This document shows, one piece after another, positions 1,255-19,598 of a stretch of 19,598 nt of DNA; position 1 is the first letter of the stretch; each line of letters begins with the position of its first letter. Where the stretch lies: the IMG/VR virus record IMGVR_UViG_2526164634_000022. One strand, 5' to 3'. The stretch is from a virus. Its lineage: Duplodnaviria; Heunggongvirae; Uroviricota; Caudoviricetes. Made by a program: the position numbers and the translations under genes. The notes under the pieces were generated by a model, which was given only the letters and a program-made list of their open reading frames with translations, made no database searches and was not told the DNA's origin.

Positions 1255-1368
1255 ATAAAACCGGGTGATGCAAAAGTAGCCATTTGATTCACAAGGCCAT
1301 TGACGCATCGCCCGGTTAGTTTTAACCTTGTCCACCGTGATTCACGTTCGTGAACATGTCCTTTCAGG

Positions 1369-1444
1369 GCCGATATAGCTCAGTTGGTAGAGCAGCGCAT
1401 TCGTAATGCGAAGGTCGTAGGTTCGACTCCTATTATCGGCACCA
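1369..1444 (+). tRNA. thrW: tRNA-Thr (anticodon CGU)
   Basis: 76-nt sequence GCCGATATAGCTCAGTTGGTAGAGCAGCGCATTCGTAATGCGAAGGTCGTAGGTTCGACTCCTATTATCGGCACCA; 7-bp acceptor stem GCCGATA/TATCGGC, T-arm GGTTCGACTCC, anticodon loop with CGT, encoded CCA end. Confidence 0.9.
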
Positions 1445-1461
1445 TTCATACATCTCCCCAA

Positions 1462-1545
1462 GTCTACTAAAGTCTTTCAAAACCCCTTATAATCCACGTA
1501 TTAAAGCCCCGTTCGTCTTTTGACGTCTACTAAAGTCCCTCAAAA
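1462..1545. repeat. Two 21-bp direct repeats GTCTACTAAAGTC(T/C)(T/C)(T/C)CAAAA (1462-1482 and 1525-1545, 19/21 identical) between thrW and int; possible integrase arm-type or accessory-factor sites
   Basis: Direct repeat read from the sequence, 63 bp apart, in the attL-proximal region just upstream of the integrase gene. Function is inferred. Confidence 0.45.
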
Positions 1546-1609
1546 TCTACGGTCAGATGGGGGTACTTATGGGGGTATTTGCTGTTCGGTTTAGTGGAGG
1601 TACCCCCAA

Positions 1610-2824: not shown

Positions 2825-3251
2825 AACAACTGGACAAGTATACAGAGGTTTACTAAAGTATAGGGGAGTAGATTGATAAAAACTCACAGAGGATTGCTAT
2901 TTAACAGTTAGCCCTGGAGAAGGGCAATCGCTCTTTTATAAACGAAGGTGTATTGAGCCTTCTACGCTGCTGAAAAGCGGAATGTTCTTTAACAGGCTTT
3001 GGCGCTGACAAAGCGCAATTGTTCTTTAAAACTACTGGATGTCACGCCTAATAGCGTGATCCTGCCGAAATGCAGGGTAGCTCTACCCTTGTGGAGCAAA
3101 CAAACCAAAACAATCTGACTATCTTTTATAAAAGACCGCAATATGTTTTTCATATTGTGGTCTTTGGCGTATTCGACATTTGACGCAAATAAAACTCTCG
3201 CCATTCGTTGCAGGAGGGGGTTATTGCGTCATTAGTACAGGATATTAATAA

Positions 3252-3455
3252 ATGGCTAATTACAATTCATTAATTCGTCTCTCTGAAGTTCAAAGGCGAA
3301 CTGGTTATAGCAAAGCATGGATTTATCGTCTTATTAGTCAGGGGAGGTTCCCTAAACAGGTAAAAATTGGAAGTCGGGCAATTGCTTTTGTTGAGTCTGA
3401 AATAGATGAATGGATTGAGAAGTGTATATTAGAATCTAGAGACGAGGTGGCCTGA
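3252..3455 (+). CDS. alpA: AlpA-family transcriptional regulator / excisionase-like HTH protein
   Basis: 67-aa ORF; the motif LIRLSEVQRRTGYSKAWIYRLISQGRFPKQVKIGSRAIAFVESEIDEWI matches the AlpA/phage-Xis MerR-like HTH pattern; typical position after a P4-type int. Confidence 0.85.
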   Translation: MANYNSLIRLSEVQRRTGYSKAWIYRLISQGRFPKQVKIGSRAIAFVESEIDEWIEKCILESRDEVA

Positions 3456-3886
3456 TGGAAAAGAAAAACCGCCCATTACAGGCGGCTAATTCAGATATTC
3501 GCGTATCTGATGTTACGCCCCTGACAAAATCCCTTCAAGCACCAAAGCGCACGCCGAAAAAGCATCGTGCCCGAGTCTATATGCTGCGTACTGGTATAGA
3601 GGGATGGACAGAAAATGACATTCTTCGCTACTGCCGTCTGTCTTCTGGTCGTAACTATGCAACAGAGTTAGAACGCCAGCTCGGAATCACTCTGGAGCGT
3701 ATCGACGAAAAGAATCCTGATGGTATCGGAACACACCTTCGCTACCGTTTCTCCTGCCGTGGTGATGTTCTGAAAGTGATCACTCATATTAACCATCTTG
3801 CGAACATAAATGATCACAACGGACTTTCTCAGCAGGAAATTGCCGACATTCTGAAACTCTACCCGGACGCGTTTAACGCCGCCTAA
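3455..3886 (+). CDS. hypothetical protein (143 aa), translationally coupled to alpA
   Basis: ATG overlaps the alpA stop (TGATG); basic N-terminus; no family recognised by eye. Confidence 0.65.
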   Translation: MEKKNRPLQAANSDIRVSDVTPLTKSLQAPKRTPKKHRARVYMLRTGIEGWTENDILRYCRLSSGRNYATELERQLGITLERIDEKNPDGIGTHLRYRFSCRGDVLKVITHINHLANINDHNGLSQQEIADILKLYPDAFNAA

Positions 3887-3898
3887 CGGAGACTGAAA

Positions 3899-4732
3899 AT
3901 GAACATCGAAAAAAGCAGATTAATTTCTGAGGCTGCCCCTCATCTAAACGCCTCTCTGGGCACAATTAACGGTAATGAATTTGCCGCAATTGTCCCGGTT
4001 ATTCCTGGTCATATCGGTGGGCGTGAAACCAATATTGTTAGCGCAAAAGCGTTACACAAAGCGTTGGACGTGGGAAAAGACTTCTCTACATGGATCACTG
4101 ATCGCATCTCTGAATATGACTTCACCATTGGGCACGATTACTCAGTCCATAAAACTATTTCCCCAAATTTGGGGAAAATCCCGAATGGCGCGGCTTACAG
4201 CAAGATTAAGCAGTCTGGAAGACCCGGCAAAGACTATCTGTTAAGTGTCGGAATGGCGAAAGAACTGGCAATGATCGAACGCAATGATCAGGGGCGCGCT
4301 ATCCGTCGTTATTTCATCCAGTGCGAGGAAGAATTACAGCGTAGCGTGCCTGAAATCGCCGCCCGCTATCGTCGCCAGCTAAAAGCCCGTATCAGTGCCG
4401 CAAACAACTTTAAGCCAATGTGCGATGCGCTGAATATGGCCCGTGCCGAGATGGGGAAAACGACGCAGCAACACCACTACACAAACGAGAGCAATATGAT
4501 TTCTCGTATCGTTCTTGGTGGGCTAACTGCTAAGCAGTGGGCGCGGATAAATGGCTATTCTGGCGAACCTCGCGACCATATGAACGCAGAACAGCTTGAG
4601 CACCTCTCATATCTCGAAAGCACCAATATCACGTTAATTGATATGGGCATGGAATATGAGCAGCGCAAAGGAGAACTCACCCGCCTGTCGCAACGCTGGC
4701 TCGCTAAGCGTCTGGAGGCGGTCCATGTTTAA
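3899..4732 (+). CDS. AntA/AntB-type phage antirepressor-like protein
   Basis: 277-aa ORF with GGAG 7 nt upstream. N-terminal region (SAKALHKALDVGKDFSTWITDRISEYDFTIGHDY ... LSVGMAKELAMIERNDQGRAIRRYFIQCEE) resembles the AntA antirepressor domain; C-terminal half unassigned. Confidence 0.7.
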   Translation: MNIEKSRLISEAAPHLNASLGTINGNEFAAIVPVIPGHIGGRETNIVSAKALHKALDVGKDFSTWITDRISEYDFTIGHDYSVHKTISPNLGKIPNGAAYSKIKQSGRPGKDYLLSVGMAKELAMIERNDQGRAIRRYFIQCEEELQRSVPEIAARYRRQLKARISAANNFKPMCDALNMARAEMGKTTQQHHYTNESNMISRIVLGGLTAKQWARINGYSGEPRDHMNAEQLEHLSYLESTNITLIDMGMEYEQRKGELTRLSQRWLAKRLEAVHV

Positions 4733-4907
4733 GCCGACAGGAACACCACAACCTCAAAAACGCTACAAAGATGCCCACGGAGCACTCGTTACTGTCGAAA
4801 GCGTGTCTCACAACCGAGTGACGTTTTATCGCGACGGGTATCAATCGCCATGCGTACAACCGCTGGCACGTTTCATGAAGGAGTTCGCGGAGGTTAACAA
4901 ATGCTAA
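4725..4907 (+). CDS. small hypothetical protein (60 aa)
   Basis: ATG at 4725 with GGAGG 6 nt upstream, overlapping the end of the previous gene by 8 nt; in frame with the listed 4638-4907 ORF. Confidence 0.45.
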   Translation: MFKPTGTPQPQKRYKDAHGALVTVESVSHNRVTFYRDGYQSPCVQPLARFMKEFAEVNKC

Positions 4908-5968
4908 CCGCCCAGAAGAAGACATTTTCACTGGCTGGTATGTCGCCAAAATCCAGCAATATGACAGCAAAGTCAGGCATTAATACAGCAGATACAAGCA
5001 AAGTTTATCATTTGCTGGTGGTAGGAGCGGATGCCTTAACTATGTCAGAAATTACGGTCGATGGTGTTAGCGTTGAGAAGGTCAGCGGCTGCGCCAGAGA
5101 ATTTCTGGTCGTAGATGGCTTTCTCTGCTCGCGTAGTGACTCCACAAAAACCTTCGTCCACGCGCGTGACGTTAACGAAATGAGCGCGATGTACTGTGCT
5201 TCTGGTTCTTCCAATAGTGAGTTTTCGGAGTCCATAAAAAAGAGCTTGCCGTTATGCGGCAACACGGTTTATGGTTATAAGGCACCTCATAAAACGGGTG
5301 CCGGGATTGGCGTCCTGGTAAATCGAATGGCGACATATGACGCGCCGAGCGTCTTTTTTTATGTCGTAGGTCTGACTCACCCATTTTTTGGGCGTTGGTG
5401 TATAATCCAGCGCCTTTGTCAATCAATGGTGGCTCAGGCAGGGGCTTCTTCGGAAGCGCCGGTATCCATTCGAGCCGGTTACGCCAACCCTGTCTGGGCT
5501 ACCACCAGCGAAATTGGCGTTTCCGGTGGTAGCGTTACATGCTATCGAATGGAGGCTGCCACATGCTGGCTACTACCCCTACCCAAAAACCGCAATTTAT
5601 CTGGATTATCGCCGCAGTTCGCCGCGATTGCCCGACAATTACCGCCAAAATTCATCATATTGCTGCCGAGTCTGAACGCGATGCTCGCCGTTCTCTGGTG
5701 CGCGATCACGTCTGCTTTTTTGCTGGTCGTATCCGCATGGAGGTGGCACATGATTAAAACCTACGATGTGCATATGGATCCCCTCGAACGCACAAGCCAG
5801 ATCATCACACTGACAGAAGTGATTAACGACATTCTGGTGAGCAACTCTCCCTCACGAGACGAAAGACTGAAGGCGTTACTCGCGATATTGGATCTCGCCG
5901 TTCGTGACGTTCATTTCCTGCTGGAAGGTGGCGAAATGCCAGTAAAAACGGGGGAAACCAATGAATAA
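4901..5968 (+). CDS. long ORF of uncertain structure; 4901-5560 looks coding, the 3' part overlaps two better-supported small genes
   Basis: ATG at 4901 with GGAGG 9 nt upstream; the frame stays open for 355 codons, which is unlikely by chance; no recognisable family. True end unknown. Confidence 0.3.
5563..5757 (+). CDS. small protein, possibly Icd-like (P4-family host cell division inhibitor-like)
   Basis: ATG at 5563 with GGAGG 7 nt upstream; 64 aa ([57 protein letters not shown]...); the resemblance to Icd-like proteins is from memory, not a search. Confidence 0.45.
   Translation: MLATTPTQKPQFIWIIAAVRRDCPTITAKIHHIAAESERDARRSLVRDHVCFFAGRIRMEVAHD
5750..5968 (+). CDS. small hypothetical protein (72 aa)
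   Basis: ATG at 5750 with GGAGG 6 nt upstream; overlaps the previous stop (ATGATTAA); first gene of a chain of coupled small genes. Confidence 0.5.
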   Translation: MIKTYDVHMDPLERTSQIITLTEVINDILVSNSPSRDERLKALLAILDLAVRDVHFLLEGGEMPVKTGETNE

Positions 5969-6155
5969 CTCAATTAATACCCCTCGCCTTACGTCCGCAC
6001 TTCAATTAATCGAGCAAGCAGCGGCTGTCCTGGTTGCTGTCAGTCTTTCGGCTGAAGAAATGGACGCTACTGATGTCGTGGATGCGATTAAAGCGTGCTC
6101 ATCTTTGGTTAACGATGCCCGTGCAGAGCTGGTAATTCTTGGGGGTGAAAAATGA
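5961..6155 (+). CDS. small hypothetical protein (64 aa)
   Basis: ATGAATAA start/stop overlap with the upstream gene; G-rich RBS upstream. Confidence 0.5.
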   Translation: MNNSINTPRLTSALQLIEQAAAVLVAVSLSAEEMDATDVVDAIKACSSLVNDARAELVILGGEK

Positions 6156-6415
6156 ATATCAACTTAATTTATCGTCATCCGTGTGAGCTGGAAATTGAAT
6201 CATTGCTGAGCCGTGAAGAGCCATATCCAGACACATTCACTCTTGCAGATCGCACGACTGAACGGCTTACCAGAGCGCGCACAGGTCTGGTTCATGTGAT
6301 GAATGAGATTCTTCCATCGGTGGGAGGGGAACAGGCGACAGTAATCACTAGCTGGCTACAAAAAGTTACCTCTCTGATAGATATCAGTTTAATCGATGCG
6401 GAGAGTGCGAAATGA
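6152..6415 (+). CDS. small hypothetical protein (87 aa)
   Basis: ATGA start/stop overlap; GGGGGTGA RBS upstream. Confidence 0.55.
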   Translation: MNINLIYRHPCELEIESLLSREEPYPDTFTLADRTTERLTRARTGLVHVMNEILPSVGGEQATVITSWLQKVTSLIDISLIDAESAK

Positions 6416-6633
6416 CCAACATCCAGCTCATTGAAGCGCAATGTCGCATCGAACAGGTTCAGACTGTTTTAGGGTTCTGGCTTGAAGGGGCCAGCCCCAG
6501 CAACAGAGACAAGTTAATGATTGGCGCGGTTATGTCACTGCTCAATGGCGTACCAGAAGCTATTCAGGAAGCAGACGAATTGTTGGGCAAATATGAGTTA
6601 CAGAATCATTCAGGCGAGGCGAAACATGAATAA
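6412..6633 (+). CDS. small hypothetical protein (73 aa)
   Basis: ATGA start/stop overlap; GGAGAG RBS upstream. Confidence 0.55.
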   Translation: MTNIQLIEAQCRIEQVQTVLGFWLEGASPSNRDKLMIGAVMSLLNGVPEAIQEADELLGKYELQNHSGEAKHE

Positions 6634-7228
6634 TTTCTTAACTTTCCATGCAGAAGCAACGCCTGACGGCGTAAACATCATGCACCGCAGCAACGATGGC
6701 ATGACAGAACGCGTTGAGACCGTCTCATATATTGATGCCGTAAATCGTCTGGATGCCGGGGATTATGACGATAAACCAGATGAAGGCATGTCAATACATC
6801 TCGCTATAGCCGATGGCGGCAACCAGGGATATTTCGATTACACATCACAGCATAACGTCATTATGTGGAGATGGCTGATCGCAACAGTATTCATGCTGGA
6901 AATGAGAGAGGAAAACGGCACTGTCAGCATCATTGATGATACTGGCAATCCTTCCGAAGTGGCTGTTTATTCCAACGGCATCGTCGCCATGCCGCTGTAT
7001 CCAGTAGCAGAGCGCCTCGCTATGGCAAACAACATTGAGGGCGCGATGATAGAACGTTTTGGCATCGAGTCTGGCACAGAACGCGCCATCATTTTCTACA
7101 GAGCCATGATGGATGTGGAACAAGGAGCACTGACTCCATTTGGTCGTGAAACGCTTGCTGAACTTCACAACAGCTTTATAGCTGAACTGAATGAAAACGG
7201 CATGCCAGCGGAACCAGTGACGCACTGA
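6626..7228 (+). CDS. hypothetical protein (200 aa)
   Basis: Most likely start is ATG 6626 (ATGAATAA overlap with the upstream stop), not the longer 6521 ORF; part of the coupled operon. Confidence 0.6.
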   Translation: MNNFLTFHAEATPDGVNIMHRSNDGMTERVETVSYIDAVNRLDAGDYDDKPDEGMSIHLAIADGGNQGYFDYTSQHNVIMWRWLIATVFMLEMREENGTVSIIDDTGNPSEVAVYSNGIVAMPLYPVAERLAMANNIEGAMIERFGIESGTERAIIFYRAMMDVEQGALTPFGRETLAELHNSFIAELNENGMPAEPVTH

Positions 7229-7238
7229 GGATGGAGCC

Positions 7239-7580
7239 ATGATTACTAAAAATTTCCGACTGAATGCGCTGGCAAATAAGTATGCGTCGGCACTGTATAA
7301 CCACATTACCTCCACCAGCGGCGGGGACTATTTCATGGTTGATGCGGACGGCGAGGCCGTACGTGTGGAAATCGTCAATGGAGTAAAAGGCGTTCGCAGC
7401 CTGATCGATAGCTACACACTGGCAGCCATGAAAGTGTTCTACCCGCAGTGGGAAACCGTGGGGATCGAGCTTCTTGAGCGTTGCGTCACTAAGGACGGAT
7501 TGACTGACGTCGGGCGTGAGATATGGCAAAGCATGGTTAATGACATGGGCGCAACTGTAGCGGGAGGTTCTCATGCGTGA
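7239..7580 (+). CDS. hypothetical protein (113 aa)
   Basis: ATG with GAGGATGGAG upstream; 10 nt after the previous stop. Confidence 0.6.
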   Translation: MITKNFRLNALANKYASALYNHITSTSGGDYFMVDADGEAVRVEIVNGVKGVRSLIDSYTLAAMKVFYPQWETVGIELLERCVTKDGLTDVGREIWQSMVNDMGATVAGGSHA

Positions 7581-7944
7581 AAATGCAGAAATGGCGCTTA
7601 GCTCCGCAATCGGAGAGCAGGTGGCAAAGATTGCTGGTGCTGTGTGGATTCATAACCTTCATTCTACTGGTGAAGAGAAAATGGCAATTCAGACGCCAGA
7701 GGGACGCACCATTACTACATCTCTGAAGCCGTCAGATGTTTGTGATCTGATTTGCGCATTCATGTACCCAGCAATGAGGACTGTCCACGGCGATAAGTGG
7801 AAACTTGCGACAACCGCTGAATTTGATATGTGGCTAAACAATGATGGCATGCTGACTGATTACGGAATAACCAAGTGGCAGATGCTGGTTAGCCATATCG
7901 CAAACGCTATAGACCACGTGGGGTACGGTGATGCGAAACATTGA
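7573..7944 (+). CDS. hypothetical protein (123 aa)
   Basis: ATG with GGGAGG RBS; overlaps neighbours at both ends. Confidence 0.6.
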   Translation: MRENAEMALSSAIGEQVAKIAGAVWIHNLHSTGEEKMAIQTPEGRTITTSLKPSDVCDLICAFMYPAMRTVHGDKWKLATTAEFDMWLNNDGMLTDYGITKWQMLVSHIANAIDHVGYGDAKH

Positions 7945-10687
7945 TCTTATCCGTCAGGTTATCAGTGCGTCTGAAAACAACTGGCCTCATGTGCTGGGCT
8001 GCCTGAACATAAATGTCCCTGACTCTCCGCGCCGTCATGCTCCCTGCCCTGCATGTGGGGGCAAAGATCGATTCCGGTTCGATGACAACGGGCGCGGTAG
8101 CTTCATCTGTAATCAGTGCGGCGCTGGTGATGGGCTGGATTTAATTAAACGCGTAAATAACTGCGACACAACAGAGGCGGCGCTTCTTGCCGCTGATGTT
8201 CTGGGTATTGATTACCGGACAACGGAAACACCAGAAGCCACCAGCCAGAAACGGGAACAACTGGAAACCGAGCGCCAGCGACGCGAACAGGAGCGCCTGA
8301 AAAGGGCAGAGAAGGACGAACAACAAAGACGGGATACGTTTTCCCGTCAGTTTGATGACATGCGCAGAAAGGCTGTAAACGGCAAATCTGATTATCTGGT
8401 TGCGAAAGGGGTAGGTGATTTTACATTCCCCGTGTTGCCCGATGGATCTCTGTTGCTGGCGCTGGTGGATAAATCCGGCGCAGTCACAGCAGCACAGACT
8501 ATTACCTCACATGGTGAAAAAAGACTCCTGACAGGTTCAGCAAAGCGGGGGGCATATCACGCCTTAAACGCACCAGAAACAACACAGAGCATCTTAATCG
8601 CAGAAGGGCTGGCAACGGCATTATCTGCCCATTTAATTCGTCCAGAGGCGCTGACAGTGGCGGCAATTGATGCCGGGAACCTGTTATATGTGGCCCAGGT
8701 ACTGCGGGATAAATTTCCTTCAGCACAAATCATCATTGCTGCGGATAACGACCACAGCGAAGGAAGACAAAACACGGGGAGAATAGCAGCAGAAAAAGCA
8801 GCTTTATCTGTTTCTGGATGGGTGGCATTACCCCCGACAGATCACAAAGCAGACTGGAATGATTACCACCAAAAACACGGCATTAAATGCGCCACAGAAG
8901 CGTTCAATAAGTCAATGTACCAACCACAGGGTAATGGCGTGAAACAGGAGCCACAGACCATTGAGGGAAGCGATTTTAAGGTTATGGATACCGACCCACT
9001 GAAACCAAGAATAGAAAGCCGCGAGGATGGTATTTATTGGGTATCTCCGAGAGCTGACAACCAGAGTGGAGAAATCATCAATAACGAAAGCTGGTTATGT
9101 TCTCCGTTAAGCGTTATCGGTACTGGCAGAGACGATAAAGACCAGTATCTCATTCTTCGCTGGCTGTCGTTTGGTTCTGAAACGCCGACAACCGCTGCCA
9201 TTCCACTGGCTGATATTGGTGAACGTGAAGGATGGCGCACACTTAAAGCTGGTGGGGTAAATGTCACGACCAAAAGCAGCCTCAGAGCAATACTGGCAGA
9301 CTGGCTACAACGCAGTGGCTCTCGTGAATTGTGGCGTGTTGCTCATGCCACTGGCTGGCAATGCGGAGCGTACATCATGCCTGATGGGGAAATCATCGGA
9401 ACACCTGAAAATCCTGTGCTGTTCAGCGGGAGAAGCTCAGCCGCAGCCGGATATACCGTCTCAGGGAGCGCGAAAAGCTGGCGTGATAACGTGGCGCGTC
9501 TGGCCTTTGGTAACTATTCAATGATGACCGGGATAGGCGCAGCACTGGCAGCGCCATTGATTGGGCTGGTGGGCGCTGACGGGTTCGGCATTCATTTCTA
9601 TGAGCAGTCGAGCGCAGGTAAGACCACCACGGCAAACGTGGCGAGCAGCTTATACGGCAACCCTGATTTACTGCGGCTGACGTGGTACGGAACCGCGCTG
9701 GGGCTGGCAAATGAGGCCGCCGCCCACAATGACGGACTAATGCCGCTTGATGAAGTTGGTCAGGGCGCTGATCCTGTCAGCGTTTCACAGTCTGCCTATG
9801 CGTTATTTAACGGTGTAGGGAAACTGCAAGGCGCTAAAGATGGTGGAAACCGGGATCTAAAACGCTGGCGTACAGTGGCAATCAGCACCGGAGAAATGGA
9901 TTTAGAAACATTTATCGCTACTTCCGGGCGAAAAACCAAAGCCGGGCAACTGGTGCGACTGCTGAATATTCCGTTGAGTAAAGCAGTACGCTTTCACGAT
10001 TACCAGAACGGAAAACAGCACGCAGACGCACTGAAAGACGCTTACCAGCATCACCACGGCGCGTCCGGGCGTGAGTGGATTAAATGGCTGGCAGACCACC
10101 AGCAACAGGCTATTAAAACCGTTCGTGACTGCGAAAGCAGATGGAGAAGCCTGATCCCATCCGATTATGGTGAGCAGGTTCACCGTGTAGCCGCGCGATT
10201 TGCCATTCTGGAGGCCGCATTGTTGTTAGGCGAGGTTGTAACAGGCTGGGATGCTCAGACATGCCGTGATGCGATACAGCACAGCTATAACGCATGGTTG
10301 CGCGAGTTCGGCACAGGTAACAAAGAGCATCAGCAGATTATTGAACAAACGGAGGCATTTCTTAATGCCTATGGGCTTAGCCGTTTTGCACCATTTCCAT
10401 ACAGCCCGGCAGATTTGCCCATCAAAGATTTAGCCGGATACCGTCAGCGTGGAGAACATGACGAAAGCCCAATGATTTTCTACACATTCCCGGCCACATT
10501 TGAAAAGGAGATCGCATGTGGTTTCAACGCAAAACAGTTTGCTGAAGTGTTGAAAAAAGCCGGGATGCTAACCCCACCAAACAGCGGTCGTGGATACCAA
10601 AGAAAATCACCACGTATTCAGGGACGACAAATAAACGTTTATGTACTCAATTACCAGCCAGGAGATTATAACTCATCTGAAGAATGA
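7928..10687 (+). CDS. P4-alpha-like primase / replication protein (zinc-ribbon + Toprim primase + P-loop/DUF927-like C-terminal domain)
   Basis: 919-aa ORF (GTG 7928 or ATG 7931). N-terminal Cys4 zinc ribbon (CPACGG...CNQCG); Toprim-like motifs ILIAEGLATALSA (compare the P4 alpha EGYATA motif) and IIIAADNDHSEGRQNTG; P-loop-like YEQSSAGKTT; followed directly by an iteron origin. Confidence 0.9.
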   Translation: MMRNIDLIRQVISASENNWPHVLGCLNINVPDSPRRHAPCPACGGKDRFRFDDNGRGSFICNQCGAGDGLDLIKRVNNCDTTEAALLAADVLGIDYRTTETPEATSQKREQLETERQRREQERLKRAEKDEQQRRDTFSRQFDDMRRKAVNGKSDYLVAKGVGDFTFPVLPDGSLLLALVDKSGAVTAAQTITSHGEKRLLTGSAKRGAYHALNAPETTQSILIAEGLATALSAHLIRPEALTVAAIDAGNLLYVAQVLRDKFPSAQIIIAADNDHSEGRQNTGRIAAEKAALSVSGWVALPPTDHKADWNDYHQKHGIKCATEAFNKSMYQPQGNGVKQEPQTIEGSDFKVMDTDPLKPRIESREDGIYWVSPRADNQSGEIINNESWLCSPLSVIGTGRDDKDQYLILRWLSFGSETPTTAAIPLADIGEREGWRTLKAGGVNVTTKSSLRAILADWLQRSGSRELWRVAHATGWQCGAYIMPDGEIIGTPENPVLFSGRSSAAAGYTVSGSAKSWRDNVARLAFGNYSMMTGIGAALAAPLIGLVGADGFGIHFYEQSSAGKTTTANVASSLYGNPDLLRLTWYGTALGLANEAAAHNDGLMPLDEVGQGADPVSVSQSAYALFNGVGKLQGAKDGGNRDLKRWRTVAISTGEMDLETFIATSGRKTKAGQLVRLLNIPLSKAVRFHDYQNGKQHADALKDAYQHHHGASGREWIKWLADHQQQAIKTVRDCESRWRSLIPSDYGEQVHRVAARFAILEAALLLGEVVTGWDAQTCRDAIQHSYNAWLREFGTGNKEHQQIIEQTEAFLNAYGLSRFAPFPYSPADLPIKDLAGYRQRGEHDESPMIFYTFPATFEKEIACGFNAKQFAEVLKKAGMLTPPNSGRGYQRKSPRIQGRQINVYVLNYQPGDYNSSEE

Positions 10688-10712
10688 GCTTCTTCATGTG
10701 CGTAGAAAAGGT

Positions 10713-10832
10713 GTTGGTTCAGTTGGTTCAGTTGGTTCAGTTGGTTCAATTTGTAAAGAGTATTGTTTTATAAGGATTTTATTCTTTTTATTGAACCAAC
10801 ACTGAACCAACAACACGGTATTTTGAACCAAC
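10713..10832. repeat. Iteron-type replication origin: GTTGGTTCA x4 tandem (10713-10748), AT-rich spacer (10749-10791), then inverted TGAACCAAC x3 (10792-10800, 10803-10811, 10824-10832)
   Basis: Exact 9-bp units read from the sequence; iterons flanking an AT-rich segment, 26 bp downstream of the primase stop. Confidence 0.8.
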
Positions 10833-10882
10833 ACAATGTGACTGAATTGATGCGCACAACACCTGGCTGGCATCAGAGAGTG

Positions 10883-10958
10883 TTTTACGAGACTTTCGTA
10901 AAATCCTGTGTACAAGGGCGTGACGTTTTTGAAAGTGAGCACTACGAAATTTTCGTAG
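10883..10958. promoter_or_regulatory. Two related palindromes: TTTTACG-N7-CGTAAAA (10883-10903) and CTACGAAA-T-TTTCGTAG (10942-10958); candidate operator sites
   Basis: Inverted repeats seen in the sequence; both share the TACGA/TCGTA half-site; located between the origin and a terminator. Confidence 0.3.
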
Positions 10959-11152
10959 TTCAGAAAACAGCCTCTGAGAAGTTGTTATGCCTGTTCAGCA
11001 AACCATCCGCATAGCTGATCGCGAATCAAATTACCAATGGAGCCAGAAGCAAGGGCAGAACTGAAAAGCGCCTGCCGTGAAGAGTAATGCGACACCATAA
11101 ATATAGTTTTTAGAGTCCATAAAAAACCTGTCAAAACCTGACACACAGAACG

Positions 11153-11186
11153 ATGCCACCAGCTACTGAGCGGTGGCATTTTTTTG
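11153..11186 (+). terminator. Rho-independent terminator
   Basis: Stem ATGCCACC (11153-11160) / GGTGGCAT (11172-11179) with an 11-nt loop, followed by a T-run starting 11180. Confidence 0.6.
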
Positions 11187-11280
11187 TGCTATTTGTTTCA
11201 TATTTTGCAATTACGATGATGAATATTGCGATTTGTGAAACTATAATAACTGTTGTTTTATACAGTTCTAAGGGGGCGTT

Positions 11281-11442
11281 ATGGCTATTTCAGTAAAGCC
11301 GGTATTGATAAGTGAGAAGCAAATGGAAGCGATAAAGAAAATTCAGGAAGAGCAGCGTAAAAAATCAGGAATTGGAGTAGCGCCAACTCTGCATGAAATT
11401 GCACGAGGGTTAATAGATAAGGCGCTGGCAGGCTGTATGTGA
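11281..11442 (+). CDS. small hypothetical protein (53 aa; MAISVKPVLISEKQMEAIKKIQEEQRKKSGIGVAPTLHEIARGLIDKALAGCM)
   Basis: Not in the ORF track (under 60 aa); ATG 11281 with AAGGGGG about 6 nt upstream; preceded by a TATAAT hexamer at about 11243; first gene after the terminator. Confidence 0.5.
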   Translation: MAISVKPVLISEKQMEAIKKIQEEQRKKSGIGVAPTLHEIARGLIDKALAGCM

Positions 11443-11458
11443 AAATGGATGGCATCGC

Positions 11459-11920
11459 ATGGAACTAAAATTTATTGATAACCCTGTGCGATTACAGGCC
11501 TTTCTTAACGAGCCAGGCAATACCGAAAATATTGTTGAGCCGGGGCACACGTACTACATCAAGCCTGATGCGGTATATCTCGGCATCTACGAAGGATTAG
11601 TGCTGGCTGGCGTTCATGAAGTGCGTAACTTCTGGCATAGCGTTGTTGAATGCCATGCGGTGTACGACCCCGGATTCCGTGGTGAATATGCACTGCAAGG
11701 ACATCGATTATTCTGCAAATGGCTTCTCGAAAACTCACCATTCCTTAACAGCATCACTATGGTTCCTGACACCACGAAATACGGACGGGCAATTATCCGT
11801 TTGCTTGGCGCTACCCGTGTTGGTCACCTTGATGATGCTTATATCAGATGTGGTAAACCCGTCGGCGTAACGCTTTATCAGTTAACTCGGCAACAATATA
11901 AGGAATTCAGCGAATGTTAA
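11459..11920 (+). CDS. hypothetical protein (153 aa)
   Basis: ORF with the next gene's ATG overlapping its end; no family recognised. Confidence 0.6.
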   Translation: MELKFIDNPVRLQAFLNEPGNTENIVEPGHTYYIKPDAVYLGIYEGLVLAGVHEVRNFWHSVVECHAVYDPGFRGEYALQGHRLFCKWLLENSPFLNSITMVPDTTKYGRAIIRLLGATRVGHLDDAYIRCGKPVGVTLYQLTRQQYKEFSEC

Positions 11921-12591
11921 TTACCCATATAGCTCATAAACATCTCAATCGTGCCGTATACGAAAAAGGCGGTGATGGTGGTGCCTCTAAAGCTCAGGCG
12001 AAGGCCCAGCAGCAGGCAATTGATTTGCAGCGCGAGCAGTGGAATACGGTGATGAATAATCTCAAGCCGTATGCAGAAGTCGGATTGCCTGCTTTACAAC
12101 AACTACAAGGACTGATGACTCTGGAAGGGCAGAATAAAGCCGCGAATGATTTCTTTGGTTCTGGTTTATATAAAACACAGGCAGATCAGGCCCGTTATCA
12201 GAACCTTGTCTCAGCAGAAGCTACCGGGGGGCTTGGCTCAACAGCTACCAGTAACCAGTTATCTTCCATTGCGCCCATGCTTTATAACAATTGGCTTAGT
12301 GGGCAAATGCAAAATTATGGAAACCTGCTAAATGTCGGGATGAATGCGGCATCAGGGCAGGCAACGGCAGGGCAAAACTACGCCAATAATACCGGACAAC
12401 TCTTGCAGGGGCTTGGCGCTATTCGTGCAGGTCAGGCGCAGCAGCCATCCAGTCTTGCGCGTGGTATTGGTGGGGCAGCATCAGGCGCTTTAGCGGGTGC
12501 GCAACTTGGTTCCGTTGTTCCTGGAATAGGAACTGCGGCCGGCGCTATTGGTGGTGGGCTTATTGGTCTTGTTGGGGGGCTTGGATTCTAA
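11914..12591 (+). CDS. Q/A/G-rich protein, possibly a P22-family ejection (DNA-transfer) protein gp7 homolog
   Basis: 225 aa; N-terminal YEKGGDGGASKAQAKAQQQ, Q/N/A-rich middle, Gly-rich hydrophobic C-terminus (GIGTAAGAIGGGLIGLVGGLGF); size and first position in a three-gene coupled operon match P22 gp7 (229 aa). Homology is recalled, not searched. Confidence 0.5.
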   Translation: MLITHIAHKHLNRAVYEKGGDGGASKAQAKAQQQAIDLQREQWNTVMNNLKPYAEVGLPALQQLQGLMTLEGQNKAANDFFGSGLYKTQADQARYQNLVSAEATGGLGSTATSNQLSSIAPMLYNNWLSGQMQNYGNLLNVGMNAASGQATAGQNYANNTGQLLQGLGAIRAGQAQQPSSLARGIGGAASGALAGAQLGSVVPGIGTAAGAIGGGLIGLVGGLGF

Positions 12592-14012
12592 TGGCGACAT
12601 GGCAACTTGGCGGGCTGCCTAGCATGGCACCGCAAAATGATAATGCTCCTCGTTCTTCCGTTCCTCAGCCTGTGCAGTATCAGCAGCAGCCAAACGTAGG
12701 TTTAATGGCGCTACAGGGGCTAAGAGGCGTTGCTGAGATTAATCAGCAGGCACGTCAACAACAGCGTAAAGCAGAGTTTCAGAAAGCATATGCCGGGGCT
12801 TTTGAGTCTGGAGACAGAAACAAAATGCGCAGTCTTATTTCTGAGTATCCAGAAGAATTTGAAAGCGTTCAGAAAGGGATGGGCTTTATTGATGACGACC
12901 AGAGAAATTCTATTGGTCATCTTGCGACTAGTGCTCAAATCGCATCTTCGCTCGGAACTGGGGCATTTGGAAAATTCATAGCAGATAACGAAGATGAAAT
13001 GCGTCGCTTGGGAATTTCTCCTGAGTCTGTTGCCGAAATGCATGTTAATGATCCACAGGGGTTCCAGCGGCTTGCTGGTAGTATGGCACTGTTTTCTCTC
13101 GGTCATGAGAAGTATTTCGATATCAAAGATCAAATGGAAGGTCGGGATATTGAGCGTGGCAAGTTGGCAGAAACAATCCGCAGCAATCAGGCTGGCGAAG
13201 CACTTCAGGCGAGAGGGCAGGATATTAGCCGAGCAAATGCGTTAACGTCAGCATATGCACCAACAGCAGCAATGCAGAATTACAATCAGTACGCTCAAAT
13301 GTTAAAGGCGGATCCAGAGGGGGCGGCGGCATTTGCGGCAGCGGCTGGAATTAATACAAACGCCAAAAAATTAATGAGTGTTAGAGAAAACGATGATGGC
13401 ACTGTCACAAAATACTACACAGACGGAAGTGAAGAGCAGGGAAAACTAAACCAGCCAATATCTGGAGATGGGTTTCGTCCAATAGCTTTGCCAACAGCCC
13501 AAAAGATCATGGAAAAGTCGCCAGAAGGGGCTAAAAAAGCTGCTGGATTTGCATACAGGGTTAGGGATGCTCTTGATTCAATAGATACACTGAAAGACCA
13601 GCTTAGCCCACAGCGAGTGGCGATCATTAATAATGCTTTGGGTAATGGGACGCTGGCTAACTTAACGCTCAGCCCAACAGAACAGCAATACGTTGTTAAT
13701 GCTAATGACGCAATAATGGCAATACTCCGTCAGGAAACAGGGGCAGCCATCGTACCTGCTGAAATGTCAAAATATTATCAAATGTATTTCCCTCAGCCTG
13801 GCGACTCCACAAAAACCATTGATACCAAGCGCCGGAAGATGGAAAACCAGTTCAATTCGCTGAAAGCTGCTTCTGGTCGAGCTTATGATGCTTTGCGGGT
13901 TATTTCAGCAGTTGACAGAGGAACTTCTTCTTCGTCGCAGACATTGCCGCAATCTGAGCAGGTATCACAGCCAGCAGCCAGCAGTAACTTTTCTTCACTA
14001 TGGGGTGATTAA
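12591..14012 (+). CDS. Q/A-rich protein, possibly a P22-family ejection protein gp20 homolog
   Basis: 473 aa (P22 gp20 is 471 aa); TAATG start/stop overlaps at both ends; low-complexity Q/A-rich composition. Confidence 0.5.
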   Translation: MATWQLGGLPSMAPQNDNAPRSSVPQPVQYQQQPNVGLMALQGLRGVAEINQQARQQQRKAEFQKAYAGAFESGDRNKMRSLISEYPEEFESVQKGMGFIDDDQRNSIGHLATSAQIASSLGTGAFGKFIADNEDEMRRLGISPESVAEMHVNDPQGFQRLAGSMALFSLGHEKYFDIKDQMEGRDIERGKLAETIRSNQAGEALQARGQDISRANALTSAYAPTAAMQNYNQYAQMLKADPEGAAAFAAAAGINTNAKKLMSVRENDDGTVTKYYTDGSEEQGKLNQPISGDGFRPIALPTAQKIMEKSPEGAKKAAGFAYRVRDALDSIDTLKDQLSPQRVAIINNALGNGTLANLTLSPTEQQYVVNANDAIMAILRQETGAAIVPAEMSKYYQMYFPQPGDSTKTIDTKRRKMENQFNSLKAASGRAYDALRVISAVDRGTSSSSQTLPQSEQVSQPAASSNFSSLWGD

Positions 14013-16116
14013 TGGCTAAAGCATGGAAAGATGTTATCGCCTCTCCACAGTATCAGGCGTTAGCACCAGAACAAAAAGCGCAGGCTCAGGAGCAATACTT
14101 CAATGAAGTCGTGGCCCCGCAAGCCGGAGAAAGTGTAGAGCAGGCTAAGCAGGCTTTTTATGCTGCCTATCCACTACCATCAACGAATGAAATAGACCGA
14201 TCCCAATCAGCAACTCAAAATATTCAACATACATCATCTGATAATTCTCTTGCGTCAGGGTATGCAAAGTTAGCTACTCAGCAAAGAGAGGGGCTTGAGC
14301 GTTCAGCAGAACAGGGAGCCAGTCTTGGGGCTGCGATGCGCGATGCTATAACAGGCGAAAGCCGAATGACTCCAGAGATGGAGAGACTGCAAAATGTCGA
14401 CCTTGCCCCAGAGTTAACCTCACTCAGCATGGATGCTCTAAAAGCTCGATGGTCTCAACTTTTCGGCTCTGACGCATCTCAGGAAAAGATTCTTCAGAGC
14501 ATGGGAGCGAAATTAAGGCAGGATGAGAAGGGTAACACTATCGTTTCCCTGCCATCCGGTGATTATGCTCTGAACAAGCCGGGTTTATCGCCGCAAGACG
14601 TGGCATCGTTTCTGGCTAATGCGCAGGCGTTTACACCAGCGGGCAGGGCTGGAACGGTGCTTGGTGCCATAGGAAAATCAGCAGCTACAGATTTAGCACT
14701 ACAGGGAGCCACTAGCCTTGCTGGTGGAGAAGATATTGATCCGTTACAAACGGTAATTTCTGCTGGCATTGGTGGTATTGGTAAGGGGCTGGAAAATACA
14801 GCGAGTGCGGTTTCGAGGGCTGTTCGTGGTGATATGTCGCCTGAAGCAAAGGCTGCTGTCGACTTTGCATCGGAAAGAAATCTGCCGTTAATGACCAGTG
14901 ACATGCTAAAAGATAAAACCTTTATGCAGAGTCAGGCTCAGACATTAGGCGAAAGAGTTCCTTTTTTGGAACCGGTAAGAATCGGCTGAATCAACAACAA
15001 GCACGAGAAAATTTAGTCAGAACATTTAGCGATGGTCTGGGTGGCATTTCTGATAAACAGCTTTATGAATCTGCGACTAAAGGGCAACAAAAATTCATTG
15101 AGGCAGCGGGAAAGCGATATAACCGCATAATTGACGCTATGGGGGATACCCCTGTCGATCTCTCAAACACGGTAAAAGCTATCGACAATCAGATTGCCGT
15201 GTTAAGCCGCCCGGGCAAATCTCAGGATAGAGCCGCGGTAAAAGTCTTGCAGCAATTTAAAGACGATATCACCAGCGGACCAAATGACCTGCGTCTGGCG
15301 AGGGAAAACAGAACCGATCTTCGAAATCGATTTATGGCGTCATCTGACACTGTTGATAAAGATACGCTCCAGAAAGCCAGCGATATTATCTACAAGGCAT
15401 ATACGGCGGATATGAAAAAAGCCGTAGCCAAAAATCTTGGAGCAGACGAAGCCATTAATATGGCAAGGGTTGATCGCTCATGGTCTAAATTCAATGACAT
15501 GATGGGAAGAACGCGCGTTCAAAAGGCAATAGCCAGCGGCAAGGCCACGCCTGAGGATGTAACAAAACTCGTTTTTAGCCAAAGCCCATCAGAACGTTCT
15601 CAGCTTTACAGGCTTCTGGATGACAATGGTAGGCAAAACGCACGAGCAGCCATAGTTCAGAATGCTGTAGATAAGGCGACTGATCCGTCTGGAAATATCA
15701 GTGTTGAGAAGTTTATTAATGCGTTACACCGGAACAGGAAGCAATCAGCAACTTTCTTTAAAGGCGTACATGGAAAGGAACTGGACGGCGTTATTAAATA
15801 CCTCAACGATACAAGACACGCGGCAAAAGCGAACGTTCAAAACTTAAATGGTCAGCAGCTTTATGGATTGTTAGTTGGTGGTGGCATCATAAACGCAGCA
15901 GTATTAGCGGGGATGCTAAAAACGGCTGCGTTTGTTGTTCCTGCTGCTGGTGCCGTAGGCGGAGCAGCGAAGGCATACGAAAGCCCTGTTATACGAAATG
16001 CCTTGTTACGTCTGGCAAATACGCCAAAAGGTAGCACAGCATATGACAGAGCGATCAGTACGGTCACACAATCGCTCACCAGAGTCGCACAGGCATCACA
16101 AAAAGAAGCTCAATAA
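14012..16116 (+). pseudogene. gp16-like ejection protein gene split by a frameshift (or homopolymer sequencing error): ORF halves 14012-14989 and 15139-16116
   Basis: The downstream frame is open with no ATG from 14917 to 15138, overlapping the end of the upstream ORF; a T6 run at 14962-14967 lies in the overlap; the 150-bp gap contrasts with the 1-nt overlaps elsewhere in the operon. Confidence 0.55.
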
Positions 16117-16135
16117 CTGGTTAGCCATGGATGGC

Positions 16136-16750
16136 TTAGATATCTCTGCTGTCTCCATTAGGAAATAAAAGATAATATGGATTTGCCTTTCTTGCTCTCC
16201 TTGCTTCACCTGGATACCTGTTAGTCAGTAGCTTGCATAATGAGCAGAGAACAACACTCAAGAAAATTCCGAATGAGAAGATCAATATCTCACCAAAAAT
16301 CAATGGCGATATTAAATTTTCAGGATTTAATGATAAGTCAATGTTAAAAACATATTGAGCAATACCAGTAAGTATCAATAATATAATCCCTATGGAATAC
16401 ATTGCTGTTTCCCAAACATCAGACAGTCTATTTTTGAATTGTTCGCTGGAGTAGTAGTTTGTTATAAAGTCAGAAAAATCACTCTCATATGCATCATCTT
16501 TAGGTGATGTTAGAAATCCTCTGTCTCTCCATACCTTCTCCCAATTAGTCGATTCTTTTTTTAAGGAAAAATAAATATGTATTGCCAAAAGGATAGCCAA
16601 AATTGGTGTTAGCTCTAAAAAATAGAATGTTATGGAATAAATAATACTGCCATGTTCAAACTCATCTGGGACTATCATGTATGCACAAAAATAAATTGAA
16701 AAGTACACCATGCAGATAGTTAGCAATTCTTTAGTATCTTTTCTGCTCAC
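16136..16750 (-). CDS. AT-rich integral membrane protein (about 4 TM helices); candidate superinfection-exclusion (SieA-like) or other membrane effector
   Basis: 204-aa ORF, GTG start at 16750 with AAGGGGG 5 nt upstream; hydrophobic segments (LLTICMVYFSIYFCAYMIV, ILAILLAIHIYF, IGIILLILTGIAQYVF, IFGEILIFSFGIFLSVVLCSL); about 33% GC versus about 50% in flanks; convergent with the gp16-like gene, as sieA is with gene 16 in P22. Confidence 0.7.
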   Translation of the reverse strand: MSRKDTKELLTICMVYFSIYFCAYMIVPDEFEHGSIIYSITFYFLELTPILAILLAIHIYFSLKKESTNWEKVWRDRGFLTSPKDDAYESDFSDFITNYYSSEQFKNRLSDVWETAMYSIGIILLILTGIAQYVFNIDLSLNPENLISPLIFGEILIFSFGIFLSVVLCSLCKLLTNRYPGEARRARKANPYYLLFPNGDSRDI

Positions 16751-16863
16751 ACCAACCCCCTTTAGCGTTGTTTAGAATGGCAATCATCATATATCCAAGA
16801 CATGGCATTTGGTACATAGCTTGGGTCGGGATTTCAAATCCGCCCCCGTTGATGGGGTCGTTA

Positions 16864-17260
16864 CAGTACGCGCATATCCGCTTTATGTGAAACAGGAAGA
16901 TTTTTCTGATATCACTGCCACAGCAAAACACCAATTTCGAGACAAGTACGCGCGCGAGGGGTATCAGTTGCAAAAAGTTTTGCAACTGCGTCCGACCAGT
17001 ACGCACACAATGGAGGGGAGTACCATAAAACTGTTCTCTACATAAGACAGAGTGGTGGTGATGTGTTGATTATCGGCGTATATGCGCACAGGACGCGCTA
17101 TGACGATGTTTTATGCGGGTACACCAATCACATGTATCTGGTGTGATAAATCGCGTTACATGACATCTCATGTTGTGCTGGTGGTTATCACGACGTTCTG
17201 AATCTGGCCTTTGCCTGATATTTTGCGACAAGTACGCGCGCGTAGCATAGAAATTATCGG
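16864..17260. repeat. Repeat-rich noncoding region: exact 16-bp direct repeat GACAAGTACGCGCGCG (16941-16956, 17227-17242), AGTACGC(G/A)C motif x4, and palindrome CAGTTGCAAAA-AG-TTTTGCAACTG (16965-16988)
   Basis: Repeats read from the sequence; no convincing ORF with an RBS; lies between the membrane-protein gene and the Abi gene. Confidence 0.45.
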
Positions 17261-17393
17261 ATGGCGTATGCTGCTGGCAATATGAAGACCGATAGTATTA
17301 ACCGAAAAGCGATTAAGGAGTGCCAACTTTTCAGTAGAGAAACTAGCCAGCATAGGAAAATGTAGAAATTACCCAATTAATAGGTAAAAGTTA

Positions 17394-17523
17394 TTGACAC
17401 AGCCTGTAGTGGATAACGATATGAATAAAAACCACATATAGTGGTTTTTCGTGAGTGATGATAGTATCTATGTTAGTTTCCTAAGTAACTGTGCATTGAC
17501 ATGTGGATAACTTCGGATAGAGT
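17394..17523 (+). promoter_or_regulatory. Two candidate sigma70 promoters for the Abi gene, each with a DnaA-box-like site next to the -35 (TTGACA 17394-17399 + AGTGGATAA 17408-17416; TTGACA 17496-17501 + TGTGGATAA 17502-17510, -10 TAGAGT 17518-17523)
   Basis: Two perfect TTGACA hexamers; TGTGGATAA is the reverse complement of the DnaA box TTATCCACA. -10 elements are weak. Confidence 0.3.
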
Positions 17524-17619
17524 TACAGGCAACCGAGCCCGATCCTCTGTTTCTCCGCCGCCGATTTCAGGCATGTGAGTTTCACGGTCGGGCCTTTTAT
17601 TATCTTTTGTTTCGCCACT

Positions 17620-18597
17620 ATGATTGCCGCAAAGCCTCATAAGGACTATCACGAATTGCTAGGATTGCTACTTGAACGTGGCATGATTATCAATGATCGA
17701 AATCGTGCGATACGTAAGCTGTCGCAGGTTGGATATTATCGATTGTCAGGTTTTTGGTACCCATCAAGAATTATTGCGACAACAGATAAAGGTCTTTCGT
17801 ACAGAACAGACCGATTTCTTGCTGGTACCAGTTTCGAGAAGACGTACGATCTATATCTTTTTGACAAAAAACTGCGTCTTTTGATGATTGATGCTATCGA
17901 AAGAATAGAGATTCATGTTCGTTCAGTCATCGCGCATGAGGTTGGTCGCAATGATCCACTTGCCTACATGTCATCAAAATACATTAATCCAAAATTCTCA
18001 TCTGCCTTCGAGCATTGGGTGTATAAGCAAAAAGTAAAATTAGACGAAAGCAGAGATGACTGTATTGAATGGCATCGAAGCCAAGGCAAGGAGATTCCAT
18101 TTTGGGTGGCGGTGGAGACCTGGGATTTTGGTCAGATGTCTAAATATTATGCGATGCTTAATGGTCATATGCAGGGGAAAATTATACGTCGTTTTGGCAT
18201 TGATAATAAGCAGACATTTGCAAAATGGTTGAAGTGCCTTAATCTCATAAGGAATCGTTGCGCTCACCATTCCAGAATATGGAATAGAAAGCATCCCCGA
18301 GTTCCAGTACCGGATAATGAATACTTTGACGGACTTAATCTCCATCCAGAGAGTTGCGAGAGGATTTTTAGCGCGATCTGTATTATCTGGTACTTAGTTA
18401 AACGACTTGGTCCGGGATCAACATGGCTTCGGCAAATTGCAGACCTTATTGACTCTAAACCAAATGTTCCCGGATGTGGATATGATTCAATGGGTTTACC
18501 TGCTAAAGGATTCCCACGAGAGAGATTCTCTCAGGACTTAGGTTTTGTTATCGCCGACAACGACCCTGTAGCTGAAGGGCGGAAAGGGAGCGATTGA
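17620..18597 (+). CDS. Abi_2 family abortive-infection protein (AbiD/AbiF-like)
   Basis: Motifs YYRLSGFWYP, ERIEIHVRSVIAHEVG and NLIRNRCAHHSRIWN, characteristic of the AbiD/AbiF (Abi_2) family. Start set at the first in-frame ATG (17620); the track ORF extends to a GTG at 17575. About 40% GC. Confidence 0.8.
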   Translation: MIAAKPHKDYHELLGLLLERGMIINDRNRAIRKLSQVGYYRLSGFWYPSRIIATTDKGLSYRTDRFLAGTSFEKTYDLYLFDKKLRLLMIDAIERIEIHVRSVIAHEVGRNDPLAYMSSKYINPKFSSAFEHWVYKQKVKLDESRDDCIEWHRSQGKEIPFWVAVETWDFGQMSKYYAMLNGHMQGKIIRRFGIDNKQTFAKWLKCLNLIRNRCAHHSRIWNRKHPRVPVPDNEYFDGLNLHPESCERIFSAICIIWYLVKRLGPGSTWLRQIADLIDSKPNVPGCGYDSMGLPAKGFPRERFSQDLGFVIADNDPVAEGRKGSD

Positions 18598-18626
18598 GCG
18601 ATAAATATCATTTATACACTGATCAA

Positions 18627-19067
18627 TTACTGAAGCAGCGTATTGATTCTTTTAATATTGTTACCCTGACGCTTCCACGCGCTGTAAATGTCTTTATCCC
18701 ACGCTTTACCAGCTTTTGTTTGGTAGCCTGCTTCATTGAGTCGTTCCGCTATCACACGCCCATTATCAAATCCCTGTCGGATGGTATCGGCAATGATCTT
18801 TATAACTGCTGTTTCGTTATATGGCTTTGGTGGGATGTTCGGCTTTCCGGCAATAAGCGATGCTGCGGCTTTTTCCATGCGCTCCACCAGCCCAAGCATT
18901 CGTGAATCAATAGACTTTTCCGGCTGTCCCAGCTTCATGCGAATCGCATCAACAAGCCAGGAGGTTTTATCCCCTCCAGAAGCGAGAACAGACCGATTAA
19001 ACTCATCCTGCAATTCAGATGGGATGCGGAACGCGATCAGATTAGATTTGCTCATTGCAAAGACCAT
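18627..19067 (-). CDS. Arc/MetJ-type ribbon-helix-helix DNA-binding protein with a C-terminal recombinase-like DNA-binding segment
   Basis: 146 aa (start 19067 or 19055). N-terminus NLIAFRIPSELQDEFNRSVLASGGDKTSWLVDAIRMKL fits a beta-strand/helix/helix RHH fold; C-terminal GRVIAERLNEAGYQTKAGKAWDKDIYSAWKRQ resembles the recombinase domain of serine recombinases; palindrome GTATAACA-C-TGTTATAC (19090-19106) just upstream. Confidence 0.65.
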   Translation of the reverse strand: MVFAMSKSNLIAFRIPSELQDEFNRSVLASGGDKTSWLVDAIRMKLGQPEKSIDSRMLGLVERMEKAAASLIAGKPNIPPKPYNETAVIKIIADTIRQGFDNGRVIAERLNEAGYQTKAGKAWDKDIYSAWKRQGNNIKRINTLLQ

Positions 19068-19159
19068 ATCAGTGAGTAATATCCATACAGTATAACACTG
19101 TTATACGCTCAAATATCAGCCAGAAAATAACGAACCAATCACAAATCTATCGCTGTGTT

Positions 19160-19280
19160 GTTGGTTCAGAGCTGGGCTGTGTTGGTTCAAAATGAGTTGA
19201 TGTTGGTTCAATATTTTAGAAAAAACACAATAAAAACAACGCTCTTTACAAATTGAACCAACTGAACCAACTGAACCAAC
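19160..19280. repeat. Second iteron cluster, an inverted and diverged copy of the 10713-10832 origin: GTTGGTTCA at 19160, 19181, 19202 (21-bp phasing), AT-rich spacer, then TGAACCAAC x3 tandem (19254-19280)
   Basis: Same 9-bp unit as the first cluster; flanks also match (CTCTTTACAAATTGAACCAAC...ACCTTTT in cluster 2 equals the reverse complement of the cluster 1 flank; TGTGTTGGTTCAAAAT shared). Confidence 0.8.
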
Positions 19281-19316
19281 ACCTTTTTGCTTATCTATAT
19301 AATCTGAGAGGCAGAA

Positions 19317-19598
19317 ATGATAAAGGACAGGAAAGCTGAAGAGCTGGAGTCAAAAGGGCTATACCGGAGAGCTGCCGCACGATGGATGGAAGTCATGCTG
19401 TTATGCACCGAGGACGATGATCGGGAATGGATAAAGCGCCGCCGTGAAACGTGTCTGGAGAACGTGAAGCGCCCGCCCGTGAAGGTTGAGGACTTTGGCG
19501 ACCTGCATAAAGCTGTTACCGAAACGCAACACCGCATGGGGATAGCGCAACCGAACGGTAACGCCTTCCGGTTAAATGGCGGCAAGAGGCAAAGGTAG
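19317..19598 (+). CDS. PerC-family transcriptional activator-like protein
   Basis: 93-aa ORF ending with a stop at 19596-19598; N-terminus MIKDRKAEELESKGLYRRAAARWMEVM matches the PerC/Pch family signature; starts 37 bp after the iteron cluster. Confidence 0.75.
   Translation: MIKDRKAEELESKGLYRRAAARWMEVMLLCTEDDDREWIKRRRETCLENVKRPPVKVEDFGDLHKAVTETQHRMGIAQPNGNAFRLNGGKRQR

Follow-up and report, generated by a model that had tools for sequence, protein, structure and literature searches.

The interrupted gene and its source

The window, by which is meant the whole stretch of 19,598 nucleotides that was analysed, contains two plus-strand open reading frames, ORF1 and ORF2, that correspond to the two parts of one gp16-type ejection-protein gene broken at a run of six T residues (Table 1). 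As a preliminary description of this DNA had stated, the two lie in different frames (phase 2 for ORF1 and phase 1 for ORF2), and the frame of ORF2 is open and ATG-less upstream of its called start, overlapping ORF1 across the T6 run; all of these coordinates hold. The ORF2 frame opens after the TAA at 14914-14916, and ATG, GTG and TTG are all absent from it between 14917 and 15139. A 1-bp indel in the run had further been proposed to fuse the halves into a protein of ~700 residues, which is correct for the gain of a base but not for the loss of one, as only one added base (T7) or the removal of two bases joins ORF1 to ORF2. The T7 version of the window gene encodes 701 residues, as in its relatives, and reads ...GERVPFFGTGKNRLNQQQ... 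across the join. T7 is the longest homopolymer of the gp16-type gene and hence the likeliest spot for an accidental indel. Neither the ORF scan nor the alignment to the closest relative, the island of E. coli ET565, revealed an additional stop codon or indel in the downstream -1 frame, which fits a recent event.

Table 1. Coordinates of the genes and sequence features of the window (positions are those of the window; aa, amino acids).
Feature	Positions	Strand	Remarks
proA	1-1254		
thrW, tRNA-Thr	1369-1444	+	shared 3' part from 1399 is the left end of the island
integrase	1610-2824	+	
AlpA	3252-3455	+	
antirepressor	3899-4732	+	
primase	7928-10687	+	
gp14-like DUF2824	11459-11920	+	Pfam DUF2824, 1.5e-61
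gp7	11914-12591	+	Pfam P22_gp7, 6.6e-73
gp20	12591-14012	+	Pfam Inj_translocase, 4.5e-58
gp16-type ejection-protein gene (inner-membrane E protein), whole	14012-16116	+	frameshifted in the window; intact form 2106 nt, 701 aa
ORF1	14012-14989	+	325 aa, ATG start; native residues 1-318, then an out-of-frame 7-aa tail LEPVRIG and TGA
start-less open stretch of the -1 frame	14917-15138	+	encodes native residues 320-376 from 14968
perfect 5-bp inverted repeat GTTCC/GGAAC	14957-14973	+	T run as loop; from sequence reading and RNA fold
T6 run	14962-14967	+	one T shorter than the T7 of intact alleles (1-bp deletion)
ORF2 as called	15139-16116	+	325 aa, ATG start; native residues 377-701
SieA-like gene	16136-16750	-	204 aa; phrog_7745, E 4.4e-4; precomputed PF26849 SIEA match, weak
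AbiD/Abi_2 abortive-infection protein	17575-18597	+	PADLOC, 8e-58

Both ORFs are matched exactly in contig AIHD01000016.1 of E. coli DEC12D (GCA_000250275.2), where they are annotated separately as a 'gp16 domain protein' (EHX52748.1, ORF1) and an 'injection domain protein' (EHX52749.1, ORF2). The same island is present in E. coli ET565, where 18.2 kb can be compared at 99.9% identity. The differences amount to six SNPs and three indels; among the latter is T7 in place of the T6 of the window, the sole change at the run site. The ET565 gene is one CDS of 2106 nt (WP_096249158.1, 'injection protein', 701 aa) that differs from the window gene by a single SNP in addition to the T7/T6 indel.

Homology to phage gp16

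That the two ORFs are remnants of one gene is apparent from the relatives. In tblastn searches residues 1-700 of the fused protein align in single pieces to gp16 of Sf6, of P22-type Salmonella phages and of others (31-33% identity, E 1e-67 to 1e-81), and its residues 69-701 are 67% identical to ORF13 of Escherichia phage N7. The fused protein also matches positions 3-667 of the 668-position family phrog_770 ('DNA transfer protein') in one stretch with an E value of 7e-161, ORF1 accounting for positions 3-265 and ORF2 for 325-667. In an alignment of three sequences, those of the island, of N7 and of Proteus phage Brookers, the break lies within the best-conserved block of this family, E-x-(V/I)-P-x-x-G-T...R..QQ.AR..LVR.F.D, and the part GTG..R..QQ.AR..LVR.F.D is encoded in the -1 stretch that lies between ORF1 and ORF2. 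A chance juxtaposition of two ORFs is ruled out by the end-to-end alignment to single gp16 genes together with the phrog_770 span.

The gene follows gp7 and gp20 in an E-protein cassette and has the SieA-like gene downstream, and some copies of it are labelled 'P22-gp16 family' by PGAP. The gp16-like identity given in the preliminary description is supported by this position, by the tblastn matches to phage gp16 and by phrog_770; both halves, moreover, map to the single 701-residue ET565 protein. Scans against local Pfam and NCBIfam copies yielded no usable match for either half or for the fusion, precomputed matches to PF26808 are faint and fall on the C-terminal half only, and a PDB sequence search returned no solved relative.

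The order of genes in P22 is gp14-gp7-gp20-gp16 with sieA after gene 16. The gp16 proteins of the Lederbergviruses (P22 gp16, Sf6 gp13, N7 ORF13) are the closest known counterparts of the window gene, with homology from end to end and the same cassette order gp14-gp7-gp20-gp16 followed by a SieA-like gene; the window gene differs in that it is carried on a satellite island and is frameshifted. Sizes of gp16 in the P22-like phages P22, Sf6, CUS-3 and HK620 are 609-722 aa (PMC8954989), a range that includes the 701 aa of the island protein. At the DNA level no sequenced phage carries the allele beyond its first 170 nt.

Two protein families appear to bear the imprint of such split copies. The 327-position phrog_29117 ('head morphogenesis') matches ORF2 end to end with the same starting methionine, and is best explained as a family of the split C-terminal half of the gp16-type gene; phrog_29864 ('transglycosylase') matches residues 65-411. 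Both families look as though they were built from truncated or split copies of the gene, in which case their labels would be misleading.

The carrier island

By its sequence and gene content, the region 1254-19598 of the window is an EcCIMP1-family phage-inducible chromosomal island (PICI) at thrW and not a P22-like prophage. EcCIMP1 itself is a 19,963-bp PICI at thrW of E. coli MP1 that is induced and transduced by the P22-like phage Kapi1 (PMC11773190). The two islands share the thrW site beside proA and the integrase, AlpA, antirepressor, Ash, primase, DUF2824, gp7 and PerC genes, and are 98.1% identical over 11.5 kb (positions 1254-12751 of the window); the Ash-like gene and the PerC gene at the far end are additional to the features of Table 1. 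Profile searches found no capsid, portal, tail or lysis genes in the island, and the window agrees with the definition of a PICI in the EcCIMP1 paper: integrase, AlpA and primase, no capsid, tail or lysis genes, a length of about 20 kb, and a position at thrW near proA (PMC11773190). Helper-dependent excision and transfer have been shown experimentally for EcCIMP1 with Kapi1 (PMC11773190) and are putative for the DEC12D island.

From the middle of gp20 onward the two islands differ, in that the gp16 equivalent of MP1 is 906 aa long and includes a lytic transglycosylase domain whereas the DEC12D island has as its own cargo the 701-aa gp16 allele, the SieA-like gene and AbiD. Other genes take the place of the last two in EcCIMP1 of MP1, so that their region looks like a variable defence slot; AbiD was the only hit of PADLOC. 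The EcCIMP1 authors described the products of the cassette genes merely as hypothetical, with a resemblance to DNA transfer and DUF2824 proteins, and a literature search for satellites that encode ejection proteins found nothing besides that paper (PMC11773190).

A search of the window and of the ET565 locus for a right-end copy of the thrW att repeat found none. In ET565 the island follows a partial thrW copy (2396-2441) beside yfdG/yfdH (gtr), an arrangement that suggests tandem elements at thrW. The ET565 island has in addition a 7-bp deletion of its own (at 7374; window 6378-6384) that frameshifts a small ORF intact in the window (6152-6415).

Length of the T run among relatives

The exact ORF1 sequence was found in the DEC12D contig only, and the repaired 701-residue sequence in no other genome of the collection; 398 of 5,426 complete E. 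coli genomes (about 7%) carry at least 80% of the allele, and among the matches listed (40 of the 398 genomes) all span 2106-2107 nt as against the 2105-nt query. About 293-298 of 324 records of complete E. coli genomes contain an exact match to a 72-nt probe with T7, and the 72-nt span is kept in all six sampled records that have 1-2 differences from it; the corresponding 71-nt T6 probe has no full-length exact match in complete E. coli genomes (~324 with the allele). A pattern scan in which the run could be 5-9 bases long, and which so sampled loci regardless of run length, yielded T7 in 31/31 metagenome contigs, 18/18 viral contigs and the one species-representative genome (GTDB) with the locus, or 51 of 51 loci when ET565 is included. 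The normal state is thus T7, from which the window departs by a one-base deletion. In a large protein collection split copies come from roughly 50-60 contigs and intact ones from well over a thousand. The comparison of related strains proposed in the preliminary description thus bears out its claim of one gene that a one-base frameshift in the T run interrupts, and the possibility it had raised that homologs always keep the halves separate fails, since phages and almost all E. coli copies have the gene as one ORF; an uninterrupted ORF of ~600-720 aa is absent from the window (325 + 325 aa) and present in ET565.

Selection on intact alleles and the predicted product of the T6 allele

The median pairwise dN/dS is ~0.16 across 22 intact alleles and similar in both halves of the gene, and 22 of 24 full-length copies among the loci sampled regardless of run length have an intact frame, the other two being frameshifted elsewhere. 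The gene is thus constrained, and on these sequence comparisons its intact alleles are under purifying selection, a maintained frame from which T6 departs. The window also has a private A at 14625 (T in 27 other loci) that changes the conserved Leu206 of ORF1 to Gln, and an independent assembly of the DEC12D reads reproduces it. This substitution was considered as a sign of relaxed selection or of a low-quality region and discarded, because at least one other private SNP lies elsewhere in the island and there is no excess in the gene.

The change from T7 to T6 would have removed one T, most likely by strand slippage during replication. Translation from 14012 would then stop at 14989 after 318 native and 7 foreign residues, and residues 319-376 would come from neither called ORF. 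The ATG at 15139 shows no anti-Shine-Dalgarno complementarity (duplex +0.7 kcal/mol, weaker than 94% of the ATGs of the window, as against -5.5 to -9.3 kcal/mol at the real starts of the cassette), and because of this lack of a Shine-Dalgarno sequence ORF2 is probably not translated on its own. A hydropathy scan places the only strongly hydrophobic segment at residues about 616-650, in the C-terminal half that is lost. The truncated product would accordingly be without both the conserved central block and this segment, and with ORF2 presumably not initiated independently the arrangement points to a recent loss-of-function allele rather than to a regulated one.

Deletion, read error or switch

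The T6 of DEC12D appears to be a real, recent and strain-private loss-of-function deletion in the gp16-type gene, a reading based on the sequence comparisons above to which we assign a probability of about 0.6. The idea that ORF1 and ORF2 are instead separate, independently expressed genes is next to untenable: it agrees with the separate calls made by gene finders (EHX52748.1 and EHX52749.1) and with the exact correspondence of phrog_29117 to ORF2, but the homologs of both are single ORFs, the start of ORF2 is without a ribosome-binding site, and 58 conserved residues would be lost between the two. A weightier alternative, possible though doubtful, is that DEC12D in truth has T7 and an intact 701-aa gene and that its reads under-call the seven-base run. 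The universality of T7 in the loci sampled regardless of run length suits such an artefact, as does the complete lack of T6 among ~324 complete genomes, which would equally fit a rare mutation; in many other assemblies T6 is accompanied by the loss of single bases from nearby homopolymers (G6 to G5, A6 to A5), the signature of under-calling; and the DEC12D assembly dates from 2011-2012, when the sequencing centre used 454 alongside Illumina. Against it, the Logan assembly of run SRR125865, which was made independently, is 100% identical to the window over 14103-19116 with T6 included, and also has the private SNPs of the window at 14625 and 18741. The agreement of the two assemblies indicates that T6 reflects the consensus of the reads rather than a fault of the assembler. 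Within the 18.2 kb common to ET565, moreover, the four further 7-base runs and every shared 6-base run have the same length in both islands; only one more homopolymer differs, G5 versus G4 at about 11268-11272, and there the window has the majority state. According to a sister paper the centre sequenced one genome on 454 Titanium and two others, with accessions near the DECA series, on HiSeq2000; the use of HiSeq2000 for DEC12D, which would also speak against under-calling, is an inference only, drawn from the neighbouring accessions of the same centre. Among split copies in other draft assemblies, T6 and T8 are spread over at least four haplotypes, and in some cases the two lengths share a haplotype. 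Most of these assemblies also carry G6 to G5, A6 to A5 or similar deletions within a few kb, and a few loci, five in number, are clean over 2-5 kb except at this run. The proposal that the recurrence marks a true mutational hot spot is weakened by these accompanying deletions, and much of the recurrence looks technical from its sequence context. The T run is fragile both biologically and technically, and its recurrence does not decide the DEC12D case. Scattered one-base deletions in G6, A6 and T7 runs also split gp7, gp20 and gp16 in many draft assemblies of the island from Logan, ENA and NCBI.

Programmed slippage sites such as A_AAA_AAG of dnaX and that of Shigella mxiE are well known, as are homopolymer frameshifts that are pseudogenes or errors. 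The preliminary description had also offered a slippage-prone switch, of which the first element stands, the run being the longest of the gene and variable in some assemblies, while nothing supports a switch that is selected or programmed. A functional recoding of this kind, whether as a phase-variable tract or as full-length protein made from T6 by a -1 ribosomal slip on T_TTT_TTG or by a polymerase-added U, is very improbable. An X_XXY_YYZ heptamer, T_TTT_TTG, is present at 14962-14968 in the zero frame of ORF1 (codons CCT TTT TTG), and a -1 slip on it would give the full-length protein with only F319L changed; in addition T6, T7 and T8 occur on otherwise identical haplotypes, and some T6/T8 loci are without any other indel over 2-5 kb. 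Yet the out-of-frame state is rare (0/51 loci sampled regardless of run length and 0/~324 complete genomes), most of the T6/T8 recurrence coincides with other homopolymer errors, and the phage homologs do not conserve the phenylalanine pair that the run encodes: N7 has IA and Brookers FA, and hence both are without the T run. With -23.3 kcal/mol, the downstream RNA (14955-15060) folds no better than shuffled sequence, for which the mean is -20.0 (z = -1.05), so that no stimulatory structure is evident, and seven bases are short for a contingency tract. The DEC12D run thus resembles the dnaX and mxiE sites in that a change of one base shifts the frame and a slippery heptamer is formally present, but differs from them in having neither a conserved shifted state nor a stimulatory element and in its short tract, and it behaves like an accident. 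That the run is a working slippage site is a proposition we regard as extremely unlikely: as a toggle of the satellite ejection protein it would decide whether satellite-loaded particles can inject, and by transcriptional or -1 ribosomal slippage the T6 allele would give a tuned low dose of full-length protein. An ordinary one-base deletion in the longest homopolymer of the gene is the preferred account, and a programmed switch is unlikely.

Significance

As a feature of the window the frameshift is real and was correctly read, but it is ordinary, and the island that carries it belongs to a published PICI family. T6 matters little by itself, as one more frameshift allele or homopolymer miscall in a gene of a mobile element, and the two 'domain protein' entries of DEC12D are best read as one pseudogene. 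The homopolymer deletions scattered among draft assemblies call for caution when 'pseudogenes' are counted.

The context is of more interest. The frameshifted gene is the satellite's own copy of a helper-type ejection protein, and E. coli satellites mobilised by P22-like phages keep a complete P22-type ejection cassette under purifying selection, with a putative role in the transfer of the satellite or in interfering with its helper. If it occurs naturally, the T6 allele would offer an existing knockout with which the role of the ejection cassette could be tested.
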